Below are positions 38,795 to 53,938 of a DNA stretch of 64,000 bases, piece after piece. Positions within the stretch are counted from its first letter, which is position 1; every line of letters starts with the position of its first letter. The notes beneath the pieces were generated by a model. It was not told the origin of the DNA. It saw nothing but the letters and a program-made list of their open reading frames with translations, and made no database searches. Origin of the DNA: an uncultured Candidatus Saccharibacteria bacterium (GTDB taxonomy: Bacteria; Patescibacteriota; Dojkabacteria; SC72). The stretch is from contig CAZSUV010000002.1 in the NCBI GenBank assembly GCA_964610125.1, positions 120,940 to 184,939 on the forward strand, in the 5' to 3' direction. A program made the position numbers and the translations under genes.

Positions 38795-41700
38795 TTAATT
38801 CAATTTGACGCCATTTAGACCCAGGCCTTCTAATTTAAACGATGCAAAGGTATCTGCAAATTGAGCAGTTGGAGACCAATCGCTTGCGGAGTCATCTGTG
38901 TCCCAGAATTTTATACGCCAGTACAAAGTCACGTTTGAGTTTGTAAGTGCTATCCCTGCATATGGATATAGTGAGGATCGTGTTCCACTCGCAACTGTGG
39001 TAGATGTTTTCCCAGAATCCCACATAATTGTTCCAGTAAAAAATGCGTTGCTGTTTACTTGTATTTGGTATGCAGCTGCATTATCCATATTAGGATCAGA
39101 ATAGATCGCAGTGAAATATGGGGGTATGTGTGTAAGAGATGGTGGGTTTACCATGGTATTTGTTTGTAATGATGTTGGTGTATCTGGAATTCCTTGCATA
39201 GTAAATTGATTTGTAGCAGACCAGACGCCTTCTGCATTATTGTTGTCCCAGAATTTTATTTTCCAGTAATATATTTCTCCTTCATTTAATGTAGAGCCTG
39301 TGTATGTAATATCTCCGGATCTAGTACCATTTGTAATTTCTGAGATTGAAGTTTTCGATGAATTCCACATACTAGTTCCAGTAAAATTCGATGCTGTATT
39401 TACAAGAATTTGATAGTAAGCTCCTGTATCTGATGTGTCAGGATCATTAAATATGGCAGAGAATGTTGGAGTGGCAGAGGTTACTTTGGTTGGGTTCGTT
39501 GCATCTTGGCAATATGGTATTGTCGGCTCTGTAGGAAGAGCATTTGTAGTGAATTGGGCAGTTGATGACCAAGAACCTTCATTTGAAGTCGATTTGTTGT
39601 CCCAAAATTTTACCCTCCAATAGTATGTTGTTCCGTCTTGTAAGGAACTTCCTGCATATACCATATCTGAAGATCGATAACCATTCCAAATAGCTTGGGA
39701 AAAAGCAGTTTTTGTAGAATCCCACATAATTGTTCCAGTAAAATCTGCCATTGTGTTCACCTGTACTTGATAGTAGTTTCCTGTGTTAAAAGCGTTAGAA
39801 TCACTAAATATCGCAGTGAACTCTGGAGTAGAATCAATTACGCTAGTTGGATTGGTTTGTCCCTCGGTTTGTAAAGAAGATGGTGCATCTGGGGCGATAT
39901 TACTAACCTCTTCTGATCCGAATGTGAATGTTTGGGAGGTTTTCCTTTGGTAGAAAGGAGTTTCAATATATGCGGGGACATTAGAGGCTGATGCTGTTGT
40001 TGTTGAACAAGAATGAGTGTGCATTGAAGCTGCTGCTGATATTGCTCTACTACCAGTACTATTATATCCACCCCCAGGATTTGTAACTATAGTTACGGAA
40101 TGTGTATGTGTAGCAGCCCCTCCTGTTCCACCTTGCGTAGCTGCTCCTCGTGGAAATAGGTTATCGAGAGCTGTATACCTTGTCCAACCCAAGGGTGGTG
40201 CACTTGTTGTCATACTGATTAATCCAGATATTGCGTAACCAGTGGTATCTTTCGCGGCATAAATCATATCAAGATATGGAGGAACTGAGTTTCCTGAATC
40301 AGTTGATCCATTGGCTGTTGTATGAGTATGCTCTCCTGCCCCGTTGTCTCCACCCGGGGAGTCGTTTCTTGTGCCTGAACCACCTGTGGTATATCCACCA
40401 GTAGTTGTATGTGTATGTGTAGTAGCTCCGCCTGTTCCTCCATATGTGCTAGCACCTCTGGCAAATTTACTGTCCAATGCTGAAAATCTTGTCCAGCCTG
40501 ATGGAGTACTTGTGAACAGTGTGACCATGCCAGCATCAATATTTAAATCCGGATTAACGCAATAGACCATATCAAGGTATGGAGGGGCGTTTGTTACATT
40601 ATCAACGCTAACCATAGCATTTGTGTGTGTGTGTGATGGGGAAGATGTTGCTCCTCCAGAATCACTTTGTGTATATGCTGATGCACTTGGTCCTCCGGTT
40701 GTACAGCTAGGAGTACCATTGTTGTGTGTTGCAGAGCCACCATTTGTTCCAAATGTAGCTGCACCATAGGTGTATTTCCCATCATATTCTGTTTTGCGTG
40801 TCCATCCTGTTGGGCAGCTAGTATTGTTAAGAAGCATAAATTCTCCAGTCCATGATTCTTCTGAATTTGTGGTAGAAGAATTACCATAATACATATAGAT
40901 TGTTTTACCCCCGACAGTGAGAGAGGGTATCTGTACCCAGACCTGTGTTGCTGAAGTATTGCATCCTCCTTCTACCCAATATTTTAAAGTAGTTGTTTCA
41001 TCACTATCTGTGAATATTAAATCATCGCAATCTCCTTGCATTTTACCTGCAGTTATTAAGGAAGCTGTATCTATTAGAACTAGAACATCTTCGTTAGTAA
41101 GAGTCGATCCACTTGTATTACTTACGAGAACAGGTCTTCTATATGATAAATTTACGCTTTGCCATGTACCCCTATCAGTGGAAAATTGCGCTACAGAAGA
41201 CCAATCACTAACCTTTGATCCCTGATTACTATTATCCCAGAATCTGATTCTCCAGTAATATGTTGTTCCTTCTTGTAGAGCAGAACCGGCATATGATATA
41301 TCCTGAGATCTATTACCATTTGTGATAGATGGAGAGAGTGTTGTTTGGGTTGAATCCCACATAATTGTCCCAGTAAAATCCGATGCTGTATTTATTTGTA
41401 TTTGGAAGTAGATTGCCGAATCTGAGGCGTTTGGGTCTGTATATATTGCACTAAATTTTGGAGTATTATTTGTAATTTCTGAAGGATTGGTTGTCCCATC
41501 TGTAAGTAATGAAGTTGGTGCATCAGGTGCGTCATTCCGTGTTTCTTCGGAATTTATTGTTATGGATTGAGAGGTCTTCTTTTGTATGAATATTGTTTCT
41601 ATATATGGTGGATTGTTTGAAACATCTGTTGTTGTAGTAGCAGAAGTGGTATGTGTATGTGCTCTTGGTTTGTTTGTTGTAGGAGTTGTAGTTGCGCAAG

Positions 41701-42931
41701 TTACGGAGCCAACAATGGCACCCGAAGTTCTGGACCCAATTGAATGGTTATGTGTTGCAGCTCCACCAGTAGTTCCAAATGTATCCAATCCTTCTGGAAA
41801 ATATCCATTAAGGGCGGAATATTGTGTCCAACCCATTGGCGGAACTGTGTTTGTCATCATTATTATTCCTGAAGATCCTTTTATATCTGCATTTGCTTCC
41901 CCATATATTACCGTTTTAAACACTGGAATTTGAGTTCCAGAACCAGTGGAGAATGAGGCAAAGGTATGATAGTGTGTTGAAGATGCTGTGGCAGTTGATC
42001 CTGTGGCACATTGAGCTGTTGCACTCGGAACAGGTGTATTTACTGCAGTTACAGTATGAGTATGTGAACTTGTTGTACTTGTTCCACCATATGTTGCCTC
42101 TCCTCTAGGAAATTTACTGTCCAATGCCGAAAATCTTGTAAATCCAGATGGAACTGTAGTATCGAAAATTGCTACAGAATCTTGCTTTACAATTAGTTTG
42201 TCGCTAGAACAAAAGATCATGTTTAAATATGGTGGAAGAACGTTCGAAGCTGTTTGTGTAACGAAACTTACATTCCCATGATTATGGAAAGCTGCAATGT
42301 TTAAATTTGTTCCAGTTTTAGTGGCACTTCCAGATGATACTGTCGAAGTTGCCATGGTGTAGCTTCCATGATCATGGGAACTTGATCCACCGGTAGCTCC
42401 ATAGGTTGGATCTGCTAACGGGAATCTTTGATAGAAATCTCCTCCCGTATTTGATTCGGTTGTCCAACCAGAATCACAAGCAGTATCTTTCATAAGGATG
42501 AATTTCCCAGCCCATGATTCTTCATTATTCCCAGCGGAAGGATTACCATAATACATATAGATAGTTTTTCCCCCGGCAGTTAACGATGGTATTCTAACCC
42601 AAACTTGAGTAGTAGCAGTATTACATCCTCCCTCAATCCAATATGCTAAATATGTACTGTCATCACTGTCAGTGAATCTAAGATCTGCACAAGTAGTCTG
42701 AAGTTTACTTGCACCAATTAATGTCGCAGTATCTATTTCTACTAATACTTCTTCATTAGTTAATGTAGAACCAGCATTCGCTACTGCAATGGACTTCCGA
42801 TATAGCCAGCTATCATCTTTCCAACCTAATACATCAGCTTTATCTTTTGTAATGAAATAATACGCAAGTCCAGCGCCAGCTACGACGAGAGTAGAAATAC
42901 CAATTAGGATTGTTTTCTTAGACAGTTTCAT
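38795..42931 (-). CDS. giant (1378 aa) repetitive cell-surface protein with DUF2341-like, phage-tail-collar-like and FN3-like modules
   Basis: It has an N-terminal signal anchor 'KKTILIGISTLVVAGAGLAYYFI'. Two DUF2341-like segments read 'WLYRKSIAVANAGSTLTNEEVLV...DLRFTD...VWVRIPSL...KTIYMYYGN' and 'LSYRRPVLVSN...'. About nine collar-like units have the form 'PP.GWT.[FY]SALD..FPRG..T.GGTGG..THTH...PPY[LI][DE]'. Four FN3-like units read 'APDAP..L.T.G.TNP...TP.F[ST]AI[YF].D...D...Y.QIQVNT...FTGT.MWDS.KT...YYWR[IV][KR]FWDN'. Confidence 0.8.
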   Translation of the reverse strand: MKLSKKTILIGISTLVVAGAGLAYYFITKDKADVLGWKDDSWLYRKSIAVANAGSTLTNEEVLVEIDTATLIGASKLQTTCADLRFTDSDDSTYLAYWIEGGCNTATTQVWVRIPSLTAGGKTIYMYYGNPSAGNNEESWAGKFILMKDTACDSGWTTESNTGGDFYQRFPLADPTYGATGGSSSHDHGSYTMATSTVSSGSATKTGTNLNIAAFHNHGNVSFVTQTASNVLPPYLNMIFCSSDKLIVKQDSVAIFDTTVPSGFTRFSALDSKFPRGEATYGGTSTTSSHTHTVTAVNTPVPSATAQCATGSTATASSTHYHTFASFSTGSGTQIPVFKTVIYGEANADIKGSSGIIMMTNTVPPMGWTQYSALNGYFPEGLDTFGTTGGAATHNHSIGSRTSGAIVGSVTCATTTPTTNKPRAHTHTTSATTTTDVSNNPPYIETIFIQKKTSQSITINSEETRNDAPDAPTSLLTDGTTNPSEITNNTPKFSAIYTDPNASDSAIYFQIQINTASDFTGTIMWDSTQTTLSPSITNGNRSQDISYAGSALQEGTTYYWRIRFWDNSNQGSKVSDWSSVAQFSTDRGTWQSVNLSYRRPVLVSNTSGSTLTNEDVLVLIDTASLITAGKMQGDCDDLIFTDSDETTTLKYWVEGGCNTSATQVWVQIPSLTVGGKTIYMYYGNSSTTNSEESWTGEFMLLNNTSCPTGWTRKTEYDGKYTYGAATFGTNGGSATHNNGTPSCTTGGPSASAYTQSDSGGATSSPSHTHTNAMVSVDNVTNAPPYLDMVYCVNPDLNIDAGMVTLFTSTPSGWTRFSALDSKFARGASTYGGTGGATTHTHTTTGGYTTGGSGTRNDSPGGDNGAGEHTHTTANGSTDSGNSVPPYLDMIYAAKDTTGYAISGLISMTTSAPPLGWTRYTALDNLFPRGAATQGGTGGAATHTHSVTIVTNPGGGYNSTGSRAISAAASMHTHSCSTTTASASNVPAYIETPFYQRKTSQTFTFGSEEVSNIAPDAPSSLQTEGQTNPTSVIDSTPEFTAIFSDSNAFNTGNYYQVQVNTMADFTGTIMWDSTKTAFSQAIWNGYRSSDMVYAGSSLQDGTTYYWRVKFWDNKSTSNEGSWSSTAQFTTNALPTEPTIPYCQDATNPTKVTSATPTFSAIFNDPDTSDTGAYYQILVNTASNFTGTSMWNSSKTSISEITNGTRSGDITYTGSTLNEGEIYYWKIKFWDNNNAEGVWSATNQFTMQGIPDTPTSLQTNTMVNPPSLTHIPPYFTAIYSDPNMDNAAAYQIQVNSNAFFTGTIMWDSGKTSTTVASGTRSSLYPYAGIALTNSNVTLYWRIKFWDTDDSASDWSPTAQFADTFASFKLEGLGLNGVKLN
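39542..42814 (-). repeat. internal tandem duplication within the giant gene (two units of roughly 1.6 kb, DUF2341-collar-FN3), plus further FN3-like repeats at 38867-39529
   Basis: Unit 1 is about 41162-42814 and unit 2 about 39542-41155 (residues about 40-590 and 593-1130). The similarity is visible at both protein and DNA level. Plus-strand ORF-track entries at 40017-40238 and 40344-40565 carry near-identical antisense repeat translations ('CVCVAAPPVPPCVAAP...', 'CVCVVAPPVPPYVLAP...'); a related antisense translation appears at 41586-41933. Confidence 0.6.
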
Positions 42932-45411: not shown

Positions 45412-45417
45412 TCCCTA

Positions 45418-45528
45418 TTATATATTAATAAGGGTAAGAATAATTGGTACAAGTATTCCACCTAGTAATATGATAGCTGTGGCTACATTGATAACATTAC
45501 GAATTTTTTTAGATGTTTCTCTTTTCAT
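45418..45528 (-). CDS. small (36 aa) single-TM protein between rel/spoT and recG
   Basis: It was found by hand translation as 'MKRETSKKIRNVINVATAIILLGGILVPIILTLINI'. Its start is 14 nt after the rel/spoT stop and its stop is 6 nt before the recG start. It is below the ORF-track length cutoff. Confidence 0.4.
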   Translation of the reverse strand: MKRETSKKIRNVINVATAIILLGGILVPIILTLINI

Positions 45529-45541
45529 ATTGACTATATTA

Positions 45542-47000: not shown

Positions 47001-48224
47001 TTATGTCTTTACTGTGATATGACATAGCTGTTTTCCTACCTTGAGTAATAGTGATGGGTAGGAATCGATATCTATCTTTGAATCCCAATCTGATATCTTC
47101 TCATTATTTATCTTTACTGCTCCCTGATCGACTAATCTCCTAGCAATGGATTTACTTCCTGCAAAGCTAATTGCTACTAAAAGTTCTCCAATCTGGAATA
47201 CTGCCTTGTTTACTTTGATCTCTTGTATCTTTTCACTGTCTTCTTTGTTTTGGAATACCTCTTGGAAATATTGTTGTGCTTTCTGTGCCTCTTCTTTTGA
47301 TGTAATTTCTTCTGTTACTCTTAATGCTAATTCTTTTTTGAGTACCATTGGATTCTCGCCAGAATCTAATCTCTTCTTGTATGTTTCTAATTCTTCTAAT
47401 GTTGCTACTGTTAATATTTCAAATCCAATTAATATCATTCCATCGGTGAAGGTCATAACCTTGCCATAGATGTCTTCTGGTTTGTCATCCATTCTAATCA
47501 TATTCCCTGTGGTTTTTCCCATTTTGTCACCATTTGGATCTTCGAGTAATTTACCAGCTAAAACGATTTTTTCTTTCTTAAGGTGATTCATAACCATGTC
47601 TCTACCAGAAAGCATATTGAAGAGTTGGTCGTTTCCGCCTACTTCAATATCGATATCCATCATTACGGAATCATAGCCTTGCATTAATGGATACAAAAAT
47701 TCATTTAGATGAATTGGCTTGTTAGCTTCTAATCGCTTTTGGAACATGTCTCGCTTCAACAACTGTTGTACTGTAAATTCTGATGCTAGATTTACAATGT
47801 CTCCAAAGTTTAACTTTTCTAACCATGTACTGTTGTACATCACTTCTACTGGATTCTCCTCATTTTTCATATCAATGATGTGAGATGCCTGCTCAATATA
47901 TTTTTTCATATTGTTCTCTACATCTTCCTTGGTAAGCATCTTTCTTGTAGCTGCTTTATCAGTAGGATCCCCTATCCTTGCGGTGAAGTCTCCAATGAGG
48001 AATATTACATGATGTCCAAGCTTTCTAAAATCTTCTAATTTTCTCATTCCTACGCTATGTCCTATATGCAATGTCTCGCCGGTAGGATCAAAGCCTTGAT
48101 ATATGTTTAATCTTTGGCCTGAGAGTAGTTTTTCCTTTAGGGCGTCTTTCGAAGGGAGTATTTGTTCTACTCCCTTTTCTAAGATTCTTTGTATTATTTC
48201 TGGATCGGTTTTTACTGTTGTCAT
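47001..48224 (-). CDS. tyrS: tyrosyl-tRNA synthetase
   Basis: 'LHIGHSVGM' is the HIGH motif and 'KMGKTTGN' is the KMSKS motif. A C-terminal S4 domain ('IARRLVDQGAVKINNEKI') is present. The protein is 407 aa. Confidence 0.9.
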   Translation of the reverse strand: MTTVKTDPEIIQRILEKGVEQILPSKDALKEKLLSGQRLNIYQGFDPTGETLHIGHSVGMRKLEDFRKLGHHVIFLIGDFTARIGDPTDKAATRKMLTKEDVENNMKKYIEQASHIIDMKNEENPVEVMYNSTWLEKLNFGDIVNLASEFTVQQLLKRDMFQKRLEANKPIHLNEFLYPLMQGYDSVMMDIDIEVGGNDQLFNMLSGRDMVMNHLKKEKIVLAGKLLEDPNGDKMGKTTGNMIRMDDKPEDIYGKVMTFTDGMILIGFEILTVATLEELETYKKRLDSGENPMVLKKELALRVTEEITSKEEAQKAQQYFQEVFQNKEDSEKIQEIKVNKAVFQIGELLVAISFAGSKSIARRLVDQGAVKINNEKISDWDSKIDIDSYPSLLLKVGKQLCHITVKT

Positions 48225-48287
48225 GACGGAATAATTATATATGTAATTGATATATACAACAAGGGAAAGAGTGTATAATTATAGGTC

Positions 48288-48824
48288 ATGGAAAAGGAAG
48301 ATATTTATAAAGAAGAAATACTGGGGCTATTTAATATCTTTGAAGCATTAGATAAACAAGGTGTGCTTATACGAGAAAAATATCCCTCTAATTTTGATAT
48401 TTTTCTTAATTCTGTTCTGGAGGAGAAAGAGATATTGGAAATTAAGGCAGATTTAATAGAAATATTTCCAGATGTAATATTTGATTCTTCTGATGAAATA
48501 TCAATTGAAACGGGTAATCCGTTCTATCAAGAAAAGGACAGAGACTTTGTATACTCTGATTACGAAATTAATAATAAATCTTTGTATAATCAGGGCTATA
48601 TTAATGTCCGATATGGTAGACAGTGTGGAATGCTTTTTAGATTTTATCGTATTGATACCCTTGATAATTTTGTTATCGCCAACTTTTATAAATGGGAAGG
48701 AAATAATTATGATCGTAGTCCGATTGTTGATCGTAATAATGAAAAATACCGTAAATTGTTTAATCATTGTAATAATATTGTTATAAAAAGAATTCGAGCT
48801 TATTCTGTCTCTGGAATGACATAA
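48288..48824 (+). CDS. hypothetical small acidic protein (array member A)
   Basis: It is 178 aa with no recognisable motif. It contains 'LIEIFPDVIFDSSDE'. It is preceded by 'TATAATTATAGGTCATG'. Confidence 0.5.
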   Translation: MEKEDIYKEEILGLFNIFEALDKQGVLIREKYPSNFDIFLNSVLEEKEILEIKADLIEIFPDVIFDSSDEISIETGNPFYQEKDRDFVYSDYEINNKSLYNQGYINVRYGRQCGMLFRFYRIDTLDNFVIANFYKWEGNNYDRSPIVDRNNEKYRKLFNHCNNIVIKRIRAYSVSGMT

Positions 48825-48877
48825 GATTTGTTTTAAGAATTTCATTATGAATCCCTATAATGTATACTTAATAGGAT

Positions 48878-49474
48878 ATGGCAAACGTAGAACTTACAGA
48901 TATTGAAAGAGAAACATTTCCTGCCCTACCTCAGTTGTATGACTTAGTTAAGCTATCTCCTACGGGCTATCTTGAAATTGCAAGAGTGGGAAGGACTAAC
49001 TCAAGAGGAATTAAGGAAAATGCAATATTTTCTGGTGAAGAAACAACTGCTCTTATTGATGAATTATCAAAATGTTACGAACTATTTGTAACAAATGACA
49101 TTCAAAGTGTTCCAGATAAAATTGCGTTAAGTACTGATTCTTACAAAAGTAAATCTGGAAAAGGAGAAGAACGATTCTTTCAAGACTCATTACTGGACAC
49201 TACGGATTTTCGGGAGGAAGTTTTAGAGCAACAACTTACCATAGCTGTATATTTTTCAAAAAATAGCTGCGTAATTCTACACGTCACAGATGTAAAAACA
49301 GATAATCCAAAGGGTTCTGTGATACACAAATTTCCATCTAAGGAGAAATATAAAGGAATACGATATATAGAGTTAACAGAAGAATTGAAAGATCTGTTTG
49401 TATTAGCCCAAAGTCTAGTAATGAAAAAGGCAATGAATGGTGAATTGGAAGGTATAGAGTTTAATCATGAATAA
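48878..49474 (+). CDS. hypothetical small acidic protein (array member B)
   Basis: It is 198 aa with no recognisable motif. A TATAAT lies 21 nt upstream. Confidence 0.5.
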   Translation: MANVELTDIERETFPALPQLYDLVKLSPTGYLEIARVGRTNSRGIKENAIFSGEETTALIDELSKCYELFVTNDIQSVPDKIALSTDSYKSKSGKGEERFFQDSLLDTTDFREEVLEQQLTIAVYFSKNSCVILHVTDVKTDNPKGSVIHKFPSKEKYKGIRYIELTEELKDLFVLAQSLVMKKAMNGELEGIEFNHE

Positions 49475-49934
49475 TGTATCAATTACAGAACAATTGAACC
49501 TTGATCCCAATCTAGAAGCGGAATATTTAGATAGTACCCTTATCTTATCAGGTTTAACAGATATTCATTTTGCAAATGAAGAGGAATTCGTGAATAAGCC
49601 CACAGTATTTTATGCTGAAATCATACCATCTGAATATTCTTTAGAAATATATAATCGTTTCTTTGATATTTTTAATTCACAATTGAGTTTCTTTCCCAAA
49701 ATAGCAATAGATATTTCACATACAGATACAGAAATGTTAAGTATGAATATTGCATGCGATAGTTGTGCCATTACTTTTGAGATAGATACAAATTCAAAAA
49801 GTGGTATTGTAAAGCATAGACCAGCATATAAAGATGCTAAGGTGGTTAGTACATGGAAGGAGTATCCATATAAGGAGATATTTCTTTTAGGGAAGGCAGT
49901 GTTTGATTATTATTTAGGGGAAAATAGTTGTTAA
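49467..49934 (+). CDS. hypothetical small acidic protein (array member C)
   Basis: It is 155 aa and overlaps B by 8 nt. It contains 'LSFFPKIAIDISHTD'. Confidence 0.5.
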   Translation: MNNVSITEQLNLDPNLEAEYLDSTLILSGLTDIHFANEEEFVNKPTVFYAEIIPSEYSLEIYNRFFDIFNSQLSFFPKIAIDISHTDTEMLSMNIACDSCAITFEIDTNSKSGIVKHRPAYKDAKVVSTWKEYPYKEIFLLGKAVFDYYLGENSC

Positions 49935-49964
49935 AACAAGGAAAGAAGGATATAATTATAGGCT

Positions 49965-50450
49965 ATGACAGACCCCAAAGTTGCTGAAGATCAAAAAACA
50001 ATAGAATATTCTGAGATTGTAAACGAAATAGATCCATTTGGAACTAGTATTGAAAATCTCCCTTTTAGAATACGTCCATATTTTTATGGCGAAGATAGCA
50101 CTGATTTAAGTAAAATAAATGACGAGGATATTGCCTTGCTTAAAGCTGCTTTTCCAGATGTTGATATTGATGAATATTCTGAGGATACATTTGTGACTTG
50201 TAATATATTCCCAATGTATTTTACATTAGTTTTTCAGACTGAAAAATATTGTTTCTTCTCCACTTTCCCATTTCATGGATCTCCAACAGAGCCTTTTTTT
50301 GAAGAGTATAATGAAACAGGAACATCAGGGAAAATATCTTTGAGAAATGGTGCAACCGAAGATGTCTTTGGAAAGATCAAGTGTCTAAAAGATATCGTTA
50401 AGGGAAAAATTGATACAAAACTTGCTGAACTAGCAAGCAGTGCCAATTAA
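49965..50450 (+). CDS. hypothetical small acidic protein (array member D)
   Basis: It is 161 aa and contains 'LKAAFPDVDIDEYSED'. It is preceded by 'TATAATTATAGGCTATG', nearly identical to the element upstream of A. Confidence 0.5.
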   Translation: MTDPKVAEDQKTIEYSEIVNEIDPFGTSIENLPFRIRPYFYGEDSTDLSKINDEDIALLKAAFPDVDIDEYSEDTFVTCNIFPMYFTLVFQTEKYCFFSTFPFHGSPTEPFFEEYNETGTSGKISLRNGATEDVFGKIKCLKDIVKGKIDTKLAELASSAN

Positions 50451-50465
50451 AGAAATACAAAACCT

Positions 50466-50918
50466 ATGTCTCTTGAACTTCTAGAAAAAACAGATATTAA
50501 TCAATTAGTATATGAGCTATCCTCAGTAAAAGATCTTGTAAATTCTCTTCCAAACAAGTGTATCATAGAAGAAGTGACAGGTAGTGAAGATATCTCTGAT
50601 ATATATCTAGGACTTAGGAAGAGTAGTCTCTTGATATATGATTTATTTCCTAATGAAATTGAGACCGTACAGATCTATTCTACTCTTATCAATGAGGATG
50701 AATATTCTCAATCATTTATCATTGGTTGTACAATGAATAATGCTTTGTTTCAGTTAAGAATCGTAACAGATGGATTGGGGAAGATAGATAAAGTATTAAT
50801 TGAGCAGTACAGAGATAGTAATTCTTTAACAATTACCTGTGAAGAATGTATAAAACTAAAGGAATTTGAAATGGCAATGGTATTAAAAGATATATTAACA
50901 AAAGAAGTTGTAAAATAG
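50466..50918 (+). CDS. hypothetical small acidic protein (array member E)
   Basis: It is 150 aa and contains 'LIYDLFPNEIETVQI'. Confidence 0.5.
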   Translation: MSLELLEKTDINQLVYELSSVKDLVNSLPNKCIIEEVTGSEDISDIYLGLRKSSLLIYDLFPNEIETVQIYSTLINEDEYSQSFIIGCTMNNALFQLRIVTDGLGKIDKVLIEQYRDSNSLTITCEECIKLKEFEMAMVLKDILTKEVVK

Positions 50919-51099
50919 CTATAGGTTTAAATTCCAATTAAGAATTGATATAATACTGTAAATTATGATTTATAAATAATCATAATCTCTTGTACTTTTA
51001 AAACAAAATATCTTTCAAATATTGTATACGACATTAAGATTATATTTCTAATGTAATTTTTATGTCGTATGCAAGTTCATCTATGTTCAAGGAGAAAAA

Positions 51100-51540
51100 A
51101 TGGCAACGAAATTAGGAATGTTATTAAATGATTATGAAAGTGCAATAAAAATGTGGTTGGCCGATTCTTGGTCTCCAGTACTATCAAATTTGTACAAAAC
51201 GCTTTTGATTGATGTCAGAGCATTAACTGTCGTGATGGAGGAACGTTTTTTGCCAGTATGGCAAAAGTGGGTATTTTCTCAAATAGCATACACTCCCAAT
51301 GGAGATTGGAAAAAGTGCTATCCTAGTGTGAATACTGTGTTTCTCCAAAAAGGGGAGACATATATAGTATCTTTTTCAAATGAAGGAAATGATCCATATG
51401 TTTCCTTCGAAATTGAAAACGATGCTGCAAAGGGTACTACCAGATTTCATTTCTTTGAAATGAATGGAACGGTGCAGCAAGCGCTTTACCTAATTAATCT
51501 CTTCTGTGATTTCGCGGAAATGGAGGAAGAACATATTTGA
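51100..51540 (+). CDS. hypothetical small acidic protein (array member F)
   Basis: It is 146 aa with a good RBS ('AAGGAGaaaaaATG'). A 180-bp AT-rich spacer with inverted repeats separates it from E. Confidence 0.5.
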   Translation: MATKLGMLLNDYESAIKMWLADSWSPVLSNLYKTLLIDVRALTVVMEERFLPVWQKWVFSQIAYTPNGDWKKCYPSVNTVFLQKGETYIVSFSNEGNDPYVSFEIENDAAKGTTRFHFFEMNGTVQQALYLINLFCDFAEMEEEHI

Positions 51541-51558
51541 AAAGTACAAGAGAACGGT

Positions 51559-51591
51559 AACCACTATGGTTATATATATTACATAGTGGTT
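51559..51591. terminator. stem-loop between convergent genes (array member F and rarA)
   Basis: 'AACCACTATGgttatatatattaCATAGTGGTT' is a perfect 10-bp inverted repeat. It is not followed by a clean T-run on either strand. Confidence 0.4.
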
Positions 51592-51599
51592 ATCGCTTC

Positions 51600-52811
51600 T
51601 CAGGAAAGATATTTCTTGTTCTTCAATCTATCTGGTAAACACTGTTGATCTGATTTCTTGTTAGCTAAATCATGATCATATTCATAACCCTTACCATATC
51701 CCAAATCTTTCATTAGTTTTGTTTCAGGATTACGTATATTTAAAGGTACAGGAAGATTCCCATATGTCTCAATATCCTTCTTTACCTCTAACTCTACTTT
51801 GTAAGCGGTATTGTCTTTAGGAGCCTTGGAAAGATATATAGCTAATTGCATAAGCAAAGTCTCACACTCAGGCATACCAAGCTTCTGACATGCTTCATAT
51901 ACACTGTTTGCTAATACCAAAGCATTAGGATCTGCATTGCCCACATCCTCACTAGAAAATCTTAGAAGTCTTCGAGCAATATACAGAGGATCTTCTCCAC
52001 CGCTTAACATCCTACCTACCCAGTAACATGCTGCATCTGGATTAGATGATCTCATGGACTTATGTATTGCGGATATGATGTTGTAATGTTCTTCCCCAGT
52101 TTTGTCATAGTAGACCGGTTTTTGAATTGCACTCATTAGAAGTTCTGTGGTTACTTTAGCTTTCTCATCTTTCTTTTGTGCAGATGTAGCTAATGTAGTA
52201 GCCATTTCTAATATGTTCAACGCTGAACGGATATCTCCATTGGATAGATTCCCCATTATTTCTAATTCTTTCTTCCCTATACCAATATTTGGATATTCTT
52301 GTTTTGCAATCCTCTTTATGAGTTTGGATATATCTTCTTCAGTTGGTTGTTTAAATACAAAGACCTTGGTTCTAGAAAGCAATGCGCTATTTACTGTGAA
52401 TGAGGGATTTTCTGTTGTAGCTCCTATGAGTATTACTATGCCTTTTTCCACATATGGTAGTAATGCATCTTGTTGAGCTTTATTCCATCTGTGTATTTCA
52501 TCTAAAAAAAGGATTGTCTTCTTTCCATATTGTTGGTTATTTAGTGCTACCTTTATAATCTTTCTTAATTGCTCTTTCCCTGCGGATACTGCTTGGAGTT
52601 TGTGAAAATCGTAGAAGAGATTAAGTGAGATTATATATGCTAATGTGGTTTTTCCTGTTCCAGGTGGCCCCCAGAATATCATTGAGGGTATGTTACCTGA
52701 TTCTATGAACTTTCTAATGGGTCCGTTTTCTCCTACTAGGTGTTCTTGACCTATGAAGTCTTCTAATGTCTTGGGCCTATATTTTGATGCTAATGGTTCA
52801 TATGCTGGCAT
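51600..52811 (-). CDS. rarA: replication-associated recombination protein A (RarA/MgsA AAA+ ATPase)
   Basis: 'ASKYRPKTLEDFIGQEHL' is present, 'WGPPGTGKTTLA' is the Walker A motif and 'ILFLDEIHRWNKAQQDALL' is also present. The protein is 403 aa. Confidence 0.9.
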   Translation of the reverse strand: MPAYEPLASKYRPKTLEDFIGQEHLVGENGPIRKFIESGNIPSMIFWGPPGTGKTTLAYIISLNLFYDFHKLQAVSAGKEQLRKIIKVALNNQQYGKKTILFLDEIHRWNKAQQDALLPYVEKGIVILIGATTENPSFTVNSALLSRTKVFVFKQPTEEDISKLIKRIAKQEYPNIGIGKKELEIMGNLSNGDIRSALNILEMATTLATSAQKKDEKAKVTTELLMSAIQKPVYYDKTGEEHYNIISAIHKSMRSSNPDAACYWVGRMLSGGEDPLYIARRLLRFSSEDVGNADPNALVLANSVYEACQKLGMPECETLLMQLAIYLSKAPKDNTAYKVELEVKKDIETYGNLPVPLNIRNPETKLMKDLGYGKGYEYDHDLANKKSDQQCLPDRLKNKKYLS

Positions 52812-52872: not shown

Positions 52873-53013
52873 GATGGGACTTGGGAATGTTAGTGGACAT
52901 GACCAGAAAGAACGACCTTGTGTAGACAAGGTTACTAGATTACGTACGTGGGGCACAATCATTTTGGGTGTATTGTTGCTCTTGTTCTTGTCGTTCATTC
53001 ACTTTTTTTGTTA
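52873..53013 (+). CDS. small (46 aa) tail-anchored peptide, module 1
   Basis: The hand translation is 'MGLGNVSGHDQKERPCVDKVTRLRTWGTIILGVLLLLFLSFIHFFC'. A strong RBS 'GAGGAGG' lies 6 nt upstream and a TATAAT lies about 30 nt upstream. The peptide is not in the ORF track. Confidence 0.4.
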
Positions 53014-53075
53014 GGTCTCAGAGGGGGATTATATGCTTCAATGCACTATGTATAACCCCCTCCTTAGATTCTTCC
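53014..53075. repeat. conserved hairpin element, copy 1 (immediately 3' of small ORF 1)
   Basis: The sequence is 'gtctcAGAGGGGGATTATATgcttcaatgcacTATGTATAACCCCCTCCttagattcttcc'. It has an imperfect 13-15-bp stem and shares the loop 'GCTTCAATGCAC' and the 3' tail 'TTAGATT.TTC' with copy 2. Confidence 0.45.
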
Positions 53076-53081
53076 ATACTT

Positions 53082-53161: not shown

Positions 53162-53314
53162 AATGAATTTCGGTTTTGTAAATGCCAAACCAGTAATGCA
53201 ATATGAGGATAATCCTCAAAAAGGATTTAGAAGCCCAGTTTTGCGGATTGCAAAAGCTTCACTTCCCTATACATTTATTTTTGGCCTATTAATCGCAAAG
53301 CTTTTTCTTCACTA
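53162..53314 (+). CDS. small (50 aa) tail-anchored peptide, module 2
   Basis: The hand translation is 'MNFGFVNAKPVMQYEDNPQKGFRSPVLRIAKASLPYTFIFGLLIAKLFLH'. An RBS 'AAGGAG' lies 8 nt upstream. The architecture matches module 1, with a hydrophilic basic N-terminus and a C-terminal transmembrane segment. Confidence 0.4.
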
Positions 53315-53368
53315 GGCCCCTGAGAGGGATATACGCTTCAATGCACATATCCCTCTTTAGATTTTCTT
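53315..53368. repeat. conserved hairpin element, copy 2 (immediately 3' of small ORF 2)
   Basis: The sequence is 'gcccctgAGAGGGATATacgcttcaatgcacATATCCCTCTttagattttcttc'. It has a perfect 10-bp stem and the same loop core and tail as copy 1. Confidence 0.45.
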
Positions 53369-53584
53369 CTGAATTGAATTAAATACCACCCCATAGTATA
53401 ATATATGTATATCTATTAACTTAGTTATAGATATATCTGCTCATTAAAAAGGATCTAGGTATCTCCTGTTTAGCTTGCTTAATACAATATGATTTTCACT
53501 ATATATGTGGAAGTTTTGTTGTGTTAAAGCAAGTTAATCAATTAACCCTTGAAAGAGGGAATTAAAAATAAGGAGAAAAAGAAA

Positions 53585-53938
53585 ATGGAAAGTTACATAT
53601 GGTTTTATGTTATTGGAATGTTGGTTCTAATTGGATTGAATATCATCCAATTAATCCGAAGCTCTGGTAAAAAGGTAATAAATTGGATTCAAATTGCCAT
53701 ATATGCTGGTTCGATAATTTGGTTTGTTTTTTGCCTTGTTGGTTTATATGCAAGTTGGTTCTTTTTTGGAACCTCTATTGCGTATATCCTGGCATTTGCT
53801 TTTGAATGTGGGCAATTATCAATCAAATTTTCAAATAAAGCTGAAAAAAAACTGGGATTTGACTTCTTAATTGTTTTTATGGCCTTTCTACCCGTGATAT
53901 TCTCTCAGGCAATTCTTGCAAACGTTCTTCCATTCTAA
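53585..53938 (+). CDS. small polytopic membrane protein
   Basis: 'MESYIWFYVIGMLVLIGLNII...' has three or four hydrophobic helices. The RBS 'AAGGAGaaaaagaaaATG' favours this start over the ORF-track start at 53549. Confidence 0.5.
   Translation: MESYIWFYVIGMLVLIGLNIIQLIRSSGKKVINWIQIAIYAGSIIWFVFCLVGLYASWFFFGTSIAYILAFAFECGQLSIKFSNKAEKKLGFDFLIVFMAFLPVIFSQAILANVLPF

Follow-up and report, generated by a model that had tools for sequence, protein, structure and literature searches.

A species-variable array of small orphan proteins at the rarA-tyrS junction of a Candidatus Dojkabacteria clade

Introduction

Orphan immunity genes of polymorphic-toxin systems have been described as arrays or islets in the auxiliary clusters of the Vibrio cholerae type VI secretion system (T6SS; PMC5361080), in Bacteroidales (PMC12247911) and in Salmonella Typhi (PMC7400221). 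Along with integron cassette arrays, flexible genomic islets and leaderless-type bacterial promoters, these are the closest described counterparts of the locus reported here, which consists of six small open reading frames (ORFs), named A to F, lying in tandem between the housekeeping genes tyrS and rarA in a 64,000-nt stretch of contig CAZSUV010000002.1 (assembly GCA_964610125.1; hereafter, the window). Comparing this junction across relatives, we find it very likely that the array is an accessory patch at a fixed rarA-tyrS site, restricted to one Candidatus Dojkabacteria clade and varying in content from species to species.

Candidate phyla radiation (CPR) bacteria, or Patescibacteria, have small genomes with many unannotated genes, and little is known about the defence of these episymbionts or their interactions with other cells. 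Literature searches covering Dojkabacteria as well as leaderless expression in CPR bacteria turned up nothing about this locus.

Results

Locus layout

The array and its two flanking genes are laid out as follows.

47001-48224, minus strand: tyrS, 407 aa, left flank (Pfam tRNA-synt_1b)
48288-48824, plus strand: A, 178 aa, pI 4.83, divergent member of superfamily S1
48878-49474, plus strand: B, 198 aa, pI 4.93, S1 member
49467-49934, plus strand: C, 155 aa, pI 4.44, own family
49965-50450, plus strand: D, 161 aa, pI 4.33, own family
50466-50918, plus strand: E, 150 aa, pI 4.38
51100-51540, plus strand: F, 146 aa, pI 4.65, separate family and separate transcription unit
51600-52811, minus strand: rarA/mgsA, 403 aa, right flank

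All six ORFs (146-198 aa) run co-directionally on the plus strand and are antisense to both flanks, and the co-directional, acidic frames and 8-nt overlap of B with C that the initial annotation had reported are all present (A-E spacers of 53, -8, 30 and 15 nt). Isoelectric points (pI) of 4.33-4.93 and net charges of -8 to -15 characterize the array proteins, such that pI falls below 5.0 in 6/6 of them vs 7/54 of the other window proteins (window median 5.76); A-F are acidic, yet set in an acidic proteome. No transmembrane segment or signal peptide was found in any of A-F, and we take the proteins to be cytoplasmic. The GC content of third codon positions (GC3) is 0.21-0.23 in A-E vs 0.27-0.33 in the flanks, with F being flank-like at 0.33. 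Orthologues in related species, with ratios of nonsynonymous to synonymous substitution rates (dN/dS) of 0.13-0.62, and confident AlphaFold models of C and D show that the ORFs are real genes.

The rarA-tyrS junction across relatives

We assembled 94 rarA-tyrS junctions, 72 of them distinct, from members of the RarA 90% cluster and two collection scans. The adjacency of rarA and tyrS is kept throughout the Candidatus Dojkabacteria clade (RarA identity 64-100%), with a gap of 29-100 bp in most genomes and of 0.45-5.7 kb in others. Among close relatives (RarA 91-99%), the gap holds 0, 1, 2, 3, 4 or 6 small antisense genes, so the presence/absence polymorphism that the initial annotation had envisaged at this junction is indeed there, and in two very close relatives, L017 and L094 (RarA 97%), it is an empty 61-bp spacer. 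Arrays are written below with a single slash for an 18-nt module and a double slash for a conserved spacer before F, both of which are described in later sections; L numbers denote the compared loci.

Window, RarA 100%: / A-B-C / D-E // F
L012, RarA 99%: ...G / X175-E // F
L006, RarA 99%: C' / G-D
L008, RarA 98%: B-C / G / D
L005 and L018, RarA 96-98%: C / H // F
L092, RarA 97%: B-C / f1
L016, RarA 97%: B / f1
L020, RarA 96%: C / f1
L003, RarA 96%: f15 / H
L010, L093 and L096, RarA 91-96%: / f1
L097, RarA 94%: / H
L095, RarA 92%: / f26 // F
L131: B' / D

Further out, relatives at RarA 79-82% carry a single f1-type gene (two in L028, f16 and f1) with an unchanged 64-nt offset from tyrS. In still remoter relatives the gap is empty or has taken up unrelated genes (trpS, prs, sortase, surface proteins). 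Orthologues of B (31-57% identity) occur in L008, L092, L016 and L131, homologues of F in L018, L005, L095, L012, L066 and L080, and the sole relative of E is a 66% identical gene in L012. Across these arrays, the relative gene order is fixed as B > C > G > S1/D > E > F, and individual metagenomes (Ga0209373, Ga0209800, Ga0209417) contain more than one array type. Since the flanking DNA of the window and the compared relatives is only 88-90% identical, with synonymous divergence (dS) of 0.6-0.9, the compared genomes represent related species rather than strains. Between these species the array proteins share 22-85% amino acid identity vs 96-99% for the flank proteins, which agrees with the initial annotation's picture of an orphan, fast-diverging tandem array.

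Two further observations concern the junction itself. In the empty sites (L017 4406-4466, L094 713-773), ACAAGG, at once the left end of the module and the tyrS -35, is retained, and TTGTGAT comes after it. This second string is similar to the final codons of S1 genes (e.g., L010_1), so deletion may have produced the empty site, though the match is too short to serve as evidence. In relatives at RarA 75-83%, the same junction holds, in the same orientation, one family of 731-848-aa ORFs without a Pfam domain:

L128, 5746-7941
L102, 5635-7956
L112, 1330-3831
L122, 5401-7947
L052/L053, 9193-11724

Tight packing of small ORFs in variable number, a short conserved sequence repeated at gene boundaries and the B/C overlap would together fit either integron-like cassettes, including clusters of attC sites lacking integrons (CALINs), or toxin-antitoxin pairs such as B-C. 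The A-E spacers of -8 to 53 nt are nonetheless too short for attC, no attC-like inverted repeats lie between the genes, in both the window and its relatives the genes called over the nearest 10 kb include no IntI or other recombinase, and the array genes have their own promoters and a fixed relative order. As for toxin-antitoxin pairs, B occurs without C in L016 and L131, C occurs without B in L005, L006, L018 and L020, and Pfam, PADLOC and NCBIfam revealed no toxin or antitoxin domains. We consider both ideas largely refuted and extremely improbable.

Restriction of the protein families

All 376 tblastn matches of the small families lie in or beside the junction, and the rest of the 1.5 Mb of related sequence has none. 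When 5.8 billion protein clusters were searched by profile, the C family came to 13 clusters and the D family to 5, and every C- or D-family member whose context was looked up sits at the rarA-tyrS junction. A, for which no database gave an orthologue, matched only itself among 1.84 billion representatives. The families of B, E and F were searched in the related loci, INPHARED phages and PLSDB plasmids. One C-family gene, together with a 196-aa gene, follows relA-tyrS on a 3-kb contig named Clostridiales bacterium (L136; GCA_013336425.1, JAAXTR010000106.1), and this contig is almost certainly mis-binned Dojkabacteria. Pfam, PHROGs, PADLOC, NCBIfam and PDB sequence profiles gave no meaningful match for the array proteins, and the earlier statement that they carry no assignable motif holds, with nothing significant in the first four of these collections.

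Small size and acidity are also gross properties of acidic DNA mimics, Ocr and ArdA among them. Together with the arrayed, presence-variable arrangement, this is what would speak for phage- or plasmid-derived anti-defence genes (DNA mimics, anti-restriction or anti-CRISPR (Acr)-like proteins) that became fixed in the chromosome, an origin that the initial annotation had also raised. The searches lend it no support, however, as no relatives of A, E or the C family were found in IMG/VR, none of B, E or F in INPHARED phages or PLSDB plasmids, and no match in PHROGs or, for predicted structures, in BFVD (best E 0.056, TM-score <=0.40). Neither an integrase, a helix-turn-helix gene like those of anti-CRISPR-associated (Aca) regulators nor another mobile-element gene is present, the chromosomal site is constant across the whole clade, and pI values of 4.3-4.9 are only moderately below the proteome median of 5.76. 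This reading is already disfavoured, and we regard it as very improbable.

A frozen promoter/start module

The duplicated promoter-like element before A and D, which is ~32 nt long, occurs at two positions.

48255-48290, plus strand: module copy 1, ACAAGGGAAAGAGTG-TATAATTATAGG-TC-ATG, with the -10 box ending 8 nt before the ATG of A
49932-49967, plus strand: module copy 2, AACAAGGAAAGAAGGA-TATAATTATAGG-CT-ATG, beginning directly after the TGTTAA (Cys-stop) of C

Both copies of the near-identical element that the initial annotation had placed before A and D were recovered; they are 78% identical without gaps, and the end of TATAAT lies exactly 8 nt from the ATG in each. The module pattern had 0 matches in shuffles and is therefore not expected by chance. 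Its 13-nt core recurs in 19 distinct copies at related junctions, in which ATATAATTATAGGYYATG (18 nt) is invariant, and in 1.48 Mb of loci the core ATATAATTATAGG (at most 1 mismatch) occurs 35 times, with 32 of the 35 occurrences inside junctions. All 19 distinct junction copies are followed by YYATG or ATATG, the genes downstream belong to 7 families (A, D, G, H, f1, f26 and X175), and the information content of the module drops steeply beyond ~20 nt. Within it, TATAATTATA forms a perfect palindrome. The module also lies 3' of C-family genes in L005, L006, L008, L018, L020 and L092. A duplication of a whole gene-plus-promoter unit, as had been proposed for A and D, is not demonstrated, given that A and D are not detectably similar and that the element is far better conserved than any adjoining gene.

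On the opposite strand, the spacer before A carries the tyrS promoter (reverse-complement TATAAT at 48234-48239, 9 nt from the ATG; -35 TTGTTG at 48257-48262), and the left part of module copy 1 (CAACAAGG) is the complement of this -35 and overlaps it. DNA homology to relatives breaks at the module on the left (48264-48299) and returns at the rarA stop (~51605), or at 51540 where the F module is present. A further promoter-like site, TTAAGA-17-TATAAT, precedes B at 48833-48861.

Across the window there are hardly any Shine-Dalgarno motifs, and many genes, among them tyrS, rarA and recG, have a -10 box (TAnAAT) 5-10 nt before the ATG. From this layout, mRNAs that are leaderless or nearly so may be the default in this organism. 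The near-leaderless layout claimed at first for the array stands, with TATAAT 8 nt before the ATG and no Shine-Dalgarno, and what does not stand is its being peculiar to the array: a -10 box next to the ATG is normal genome-wide, and the special part is the frozen, repeated 18-nt module.

Paralogy within the array

Pairwise blastp among A-F gave nothing significant. The junction families f1, H and f26 are related to each other (hhalign probability 93-97%), and we define the f1/H/f26/X175 junction genes as superfamily S1, which includes the sole or last gene of many arrays. A seed profile of 16 f1/H/f26 sequences, with A not included, scored 26.8 bits against A (HMM positions 15-162, A residues 7-170) and 15.6-24.8 bits against B-family members, and as the top score among 8,844 decoys, either shuffled or reversed, was 11.4 bits, we place A and B as paralogues within S1. 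G is probably related to S1 as well, judging by its profile alignment (p ~0.001 over 134 collinear columns). D and E align with S1 collinearly over their full length at p = 0.024 and p = 0.04, values that do not survive correction for 36 comparisons, and by hidden Markov model (HMM) E reached 7 bits against S1, under the decoy level. HMM cross-matches and profile comparison link C only to L003_1 and link F to no other array family; hhalign, at a probability of 0.1%, detects no profile similarity between C and D, and HMM cross-matches among A, C, D and E are at or under the decoy level. Paralogy within the array is thereby borne out for A with B in S1, and the grouping of A, C, D and E proposed in the initial annotation lacks significant sequence or profile similarity.

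That grouping had been built on a shared block around Phe-Pro. The four strings quoted for it are present, and the generalized expression, as it was written, matches none of them. A shorter pattern, FP[DKN][VIE], has a single match in each of the four proteins A, C, D and E (residues 60-76) and none in the 18,471 residues of the other window proteins; its presence in at least 4 of 6 proteins was never reached in 20,000 shuffles, a significance that is overstated since the pattern was picked post hoc. The motif sits just past helix alpha2 in the C and D models, and in the S1 alignment LIEIFPD of A lines up with the equivalent segment of other members, e.g., CDELFPTD in the B family. It is not kept within families, where C homologues read FFQK, IFTN or LYLD, D homologues NFEG or VFEG, and the E homologue LLPN. 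We see it as a recurrent structural feature after the second helix, compatible with distant common ancestry and no proof of it.

Predicted structures of C and D

AlphaFold2 modelled C from 13 sequences (predicted local distance difference test (pLDDT) and predicted TM-score (pTM) 79/0.79) with helices at 14-28, 55-72 and 137-151, short strands at 32-36 and 48-50, and five strands across 79-129, and D from 5 sequences (pLDDT/pTM 87/0.84) with helices at 15-30, 53-62 and 132-160, two short bridges, and four strands across 76-116. Common to both models is a single alpha/beta domain with the element order of a helix, two short strands, a helix, an antiparallel meander of 4-5 strands and a long C-terminal helix. 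Their structural match lists have 24 entries in common among the top 60, including FcpB (6pwb), polo-box domains (5lhx, 4nkb), OspA, the p32-like proteins p32/Mam33 (3qv0, 1yqf), TipC2 (6dhx) and VC0508 (2w56). What these neighbours have in common with C and D is an antiparallel beta-meander packed on helices; several are protein-binding modules, and TipC2 is an immunity protein of the type VII secretion system (T7SS). On these models, C and D probably share one fold that is not close to any solved structure. The C family keeps invariant polar residues, e.g., H117 and R118.

F as a separate regulated unit

The spacer between E and F has features of its own, which continue past the end of F.

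50916-51099, plus strand: E-F spacer, or F leader, with 81% column identity in 6 species
50946-50954, plus strand: extended -10 TGATATAAT, the F promoter
50962-50986, plus strand: 9-bp hairpin or palindrome in the F leader
50986-51003, plus strand: IR-L, an 18-nt inverted repeat in the F leader
51022-51074, plus strand: 13+7-bp hairpin in which 6 pairs show compensatory or G.U changes
Before F, downstream of the 13+7-bp hairpin, plus strand: AGGAG Shine-Dalgarno, rare in this genome
51536-51553, plus strand: IR-R, TTTGAAAAGTACAAGAGA, 94% complementary to IR-L and 532 nt apart from it
51555-51595, no strand assigned: 14-bp hairpin between the convergent F and rarA

The spacer is 81% conserved vs 27-62% amino acid identity among F proteins, and the gene upstream of it comes from different families depending on the species. 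Rfam gave no match for the F leader, which looks like an undescribed structured leader of ~140 nt. The 14-bp hairpin, conserved in L012, L005 and L018, is probably a bidirectional terminator for F and rarA. Having its own promoter, structured leader, Shine-Dalgarno and terminator, F is well supported as an independent, regulated transcription unit.

The start of IR-R falls inside F's final sense codon, 2 nt ahead of the TGA stop, and the repeat is conserved in L018 and L012, despite the divergence of their F proteins, and more weakly in L005. F is bracketed by IR-L and IR-R with its promoter outside the bracketed segment, and the orientation is the same in all assemblies. The repeats could serve 5'-3' pairing of the mRNA, delimit an invertible ON/OFF segment, or be relic ends of a mobile cassette. 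A bolder construction would join these features into a recombinase-free cassette system, in which the 18-40-nt modules and the F spacer act as portable homology anchors by which related species exchange, duplicate and delete single members of a new immunity superfamily with a novel alpha/beta fold, the arrays record the toxins or effectors met, and F is switchable via its leader and 18-nt repeats (by mRNA pairing or DNA inversion); we rate it as quite improbable.

Evolutionary rates and history

Array genes evolve at dN/dS values mostly of 0.13-0.35 (full range 0.13-0.62) vs 0.02-0.04 for tyrS and rarA, such that selection on them is purifying but ~10x more relaxed than on the flanks. Between the window and L008, dS runs from 0.34 in C through 1.1 in B to 1.9 in D, with the flanks at 0.63-0.85; this unevenness hints at the exchange of single genes, although the estimates are noisy and near saturation.

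We consider it very likely that, early in the clade, a small antisense S1 gene settled in the spacer, and that in the sub-clade of the window organism tandem duplication and fast divergence built arrays of up to six genes, which were then repeatedly trimmed by deletion, down to the empty 61-bp spacer in some close relatives. Expression would start from the module copies before the first gene and inside the array, presumably yielding leaderless or near-leaderless mRNAs.

Part of this record could also be produced by a weakly constrained, lineage-specific expansion with no adaptive role, in which young, dispensable, fast-evolving genes occupy a permissive spacer between convergent and divergent housekeeping genes and disappear by chance: the very close L017 and L094 have an empty site, dN/dS is ~10x that of the flanks yet below 1, the GC3 of A-E lies under that of the flanks, and searches with A and the C and D families returned no homologues beyond the clade. 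Such an account fits poorly with the clear purifying selection (0.13-0.35 for most pairs), with confident, compact models and the invariant polar residues of the C family (H117, R118), and with S1 genes persisting at the junction down to relatives at RarA 79%, while the invariant promoter module and structured F leader point to maintained, regulated expression. We take this expansion without a role to be decidedly unlikely.

Features upstream of rarA

Two mini-ORFs lie upstream of rarA on the plus strand, at 52874-53014 (46 aa) and 53163-53315 (50 aa). Their peptides have a polar N-terminus and a hydrophobic C-terminal tail, both have a strong Shine-Dalgarno of the kind seldom used in this genome, and after each comes a near-identical hairpin whose loop reads GCTTCAATGCAC (~53016-53077 and 53315-53370), present in the window in only these two copies. 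From their sequences, the mini-ORFs may encode small membrane peptides or type I toxin-like genes. Next to them, a ~220-nt non-coding block (53358-53580) is 82-91% conserved in close relatives, level with the coding flanks and with no Rfam match, and beside this block lies a variable 129-aa membrane protein (53549-53938) with homologues only in more distant relatives.

Discussion

Taken as a whole, the explanation that we favour, if only tentatively, combines the history of the patch with an immunity-like role for its products. The proteins would be non-enzymatic binders that neutralize variable incoming proteins, such as toxins or effectors of competitors, hosts or phages, and the arrays would form an orphan immunity-like repertoire whose membership follows what each species meets. 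Several properties fit a binding and neutralizing function, in that the proteins are small and acidic, bear no sign of enzymatic activity, vary in copy number, evolve under relaxed purifying selection and have an architecture like that of protein-binding modules; taken by itself, this functional part is possible but doubtful.

Several points weigh against the immunity-like role. The examined window annotation and the 10-kb flanks in relatives contain no toxin, toxin C-terminal remnant, nuclease, recombinase or secretion gene, in agreement with the initial annotation, which had seen no toxin, nuclease or recombinase partner, and known immunity families in Pfam and PADLOC, of the kind of SUKH/SMI1_KNR4, the Imm families, CdiI and Tsi/Tdi, give no match. 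The conserved gene order fits vertical descent with loss and speaks against the free cassette swapping of immunity islands. With dN/dS below 1, there is no sign of an arms race, and as the compared relatives are different species, much of the divergence could reflect relaxed constraint over time. The models of C and D come from shallow alignments (13 and 5 sequences), with only the top-ranked ones being confident, and the shared fold is a prediction for C and D.

The wider neighbourhood brings in another reading. Housekeeping genes surround the array in the window and in relatives, with murC, mraZ, rsmH, a penicillin-binding protein gene, mraY, tatD, truB and rarA on one side, and tyrS, relA/spoT, recG, spoU, a large DUF2341/Ig-repeat protein, rsmD and thrS on the other. 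The large protein (38795-42931, minus strand, 1378 aa), with DUF2341 and Ig_Rha78A_N repeats, has counterparts of 826 aa in L003 (17566-20046), 1688 aa in L005 (from 18193) and 2730 aa in L006 (from 18206), the last two leaving the locus end, and is probably a variable surface protein. We also considered a toxin within this 1378-aa neighbour and rejected it, since only DUF2341 and Ig-like repeats are present. A 36-aa ORF lies in the relA/spoT-recG gap (window ~45412-45541) and is called in nearly all close relatives (L002 1030-1140).

With a surface protein of variable length among relatives only ~5 kb off, the array proteins could be accessory proteins of episymbiosis, either host-directed effectors or adaptors, or chaperones or adaptors for nearby variable surface proteins, their diversity following host targets. 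A-F, however, have no signal peptides or known secretion signals, no secretion apparatus appears in the examined window annotation or the flanks of relatives, and five housekeeping genes plus the 36-aa ORF separate the array from the surface protein gene. An episymbiotic role strikes us as unlikely.

The locus can be compared directly across species, as it sits at a fixed site that ranges from empty to six genes and holds at least two protein superfamilies without known relatives and with confident predicted folds. If its products prove to be immunity or interaction factors, they would offer a handle on inter-cellular conflict in CPR along with new protein folds; if they turn out to lack any particular function, the locus would still offer a clean case of lineage-specific gene birth, expansion and loss. 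With its constant start module and the structured leader of F, it also lends itself to the study of leaderless expression and regulation in a Shine-Dalgarno-poor genome.

Comparison with known systems

Among the described systems, orphan immunity arrays resemble this locus in their tandem small, non-secreted, fast-diverging and partly paralogous proteins, in variable copy number and membership, and in having no cognate toxin in cis. They differ in that the present array has no T6SS, T7SS, contact-dependent inhibition (CDI) or Rhs context, no toxin remnants and no match to a described immunity family, and in that it occupies, with no recombinase or mobile element, one fixed housekeeping site with preserved order in a CPR host, its protective role being predicted only. 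Integron cassette arrays and CALINs are likewise variable sets of compact ORFs, orphans for the most part, that share an orientation and a single chromosomal site, whereas here attC and integrase are lacking, the genes have their own promoter modules, order is kept, and variation resembles duplication and deletion with homologous exchange rather than site-specific insertion.

Flexible genomic islets, or replacement islands, share the sharp homology breaks at the flanks, presence/absence including empty sites, ORFan content and GC3 unlike that of the flanks. The present islet is, by contrast, very small (0.5-3.4 kb), is made mostly of one or two novel small-protein superfamilies and carries a repeated invariant promoter/start module. 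With leaderless-type bacterial promoters, it has in common a TATAAT 8 nt before the ATG without a Shine-Dalgarno at A and D, but here a repeated 18-nt unit fixes the -10, its 8-nt spacer and the surroundings of the ATG together before unrelated genes in many species. The locus belongs with variable islets of small, partly paralogous orphan proteins; what is new is its CPR host and its families without detectable relatives.

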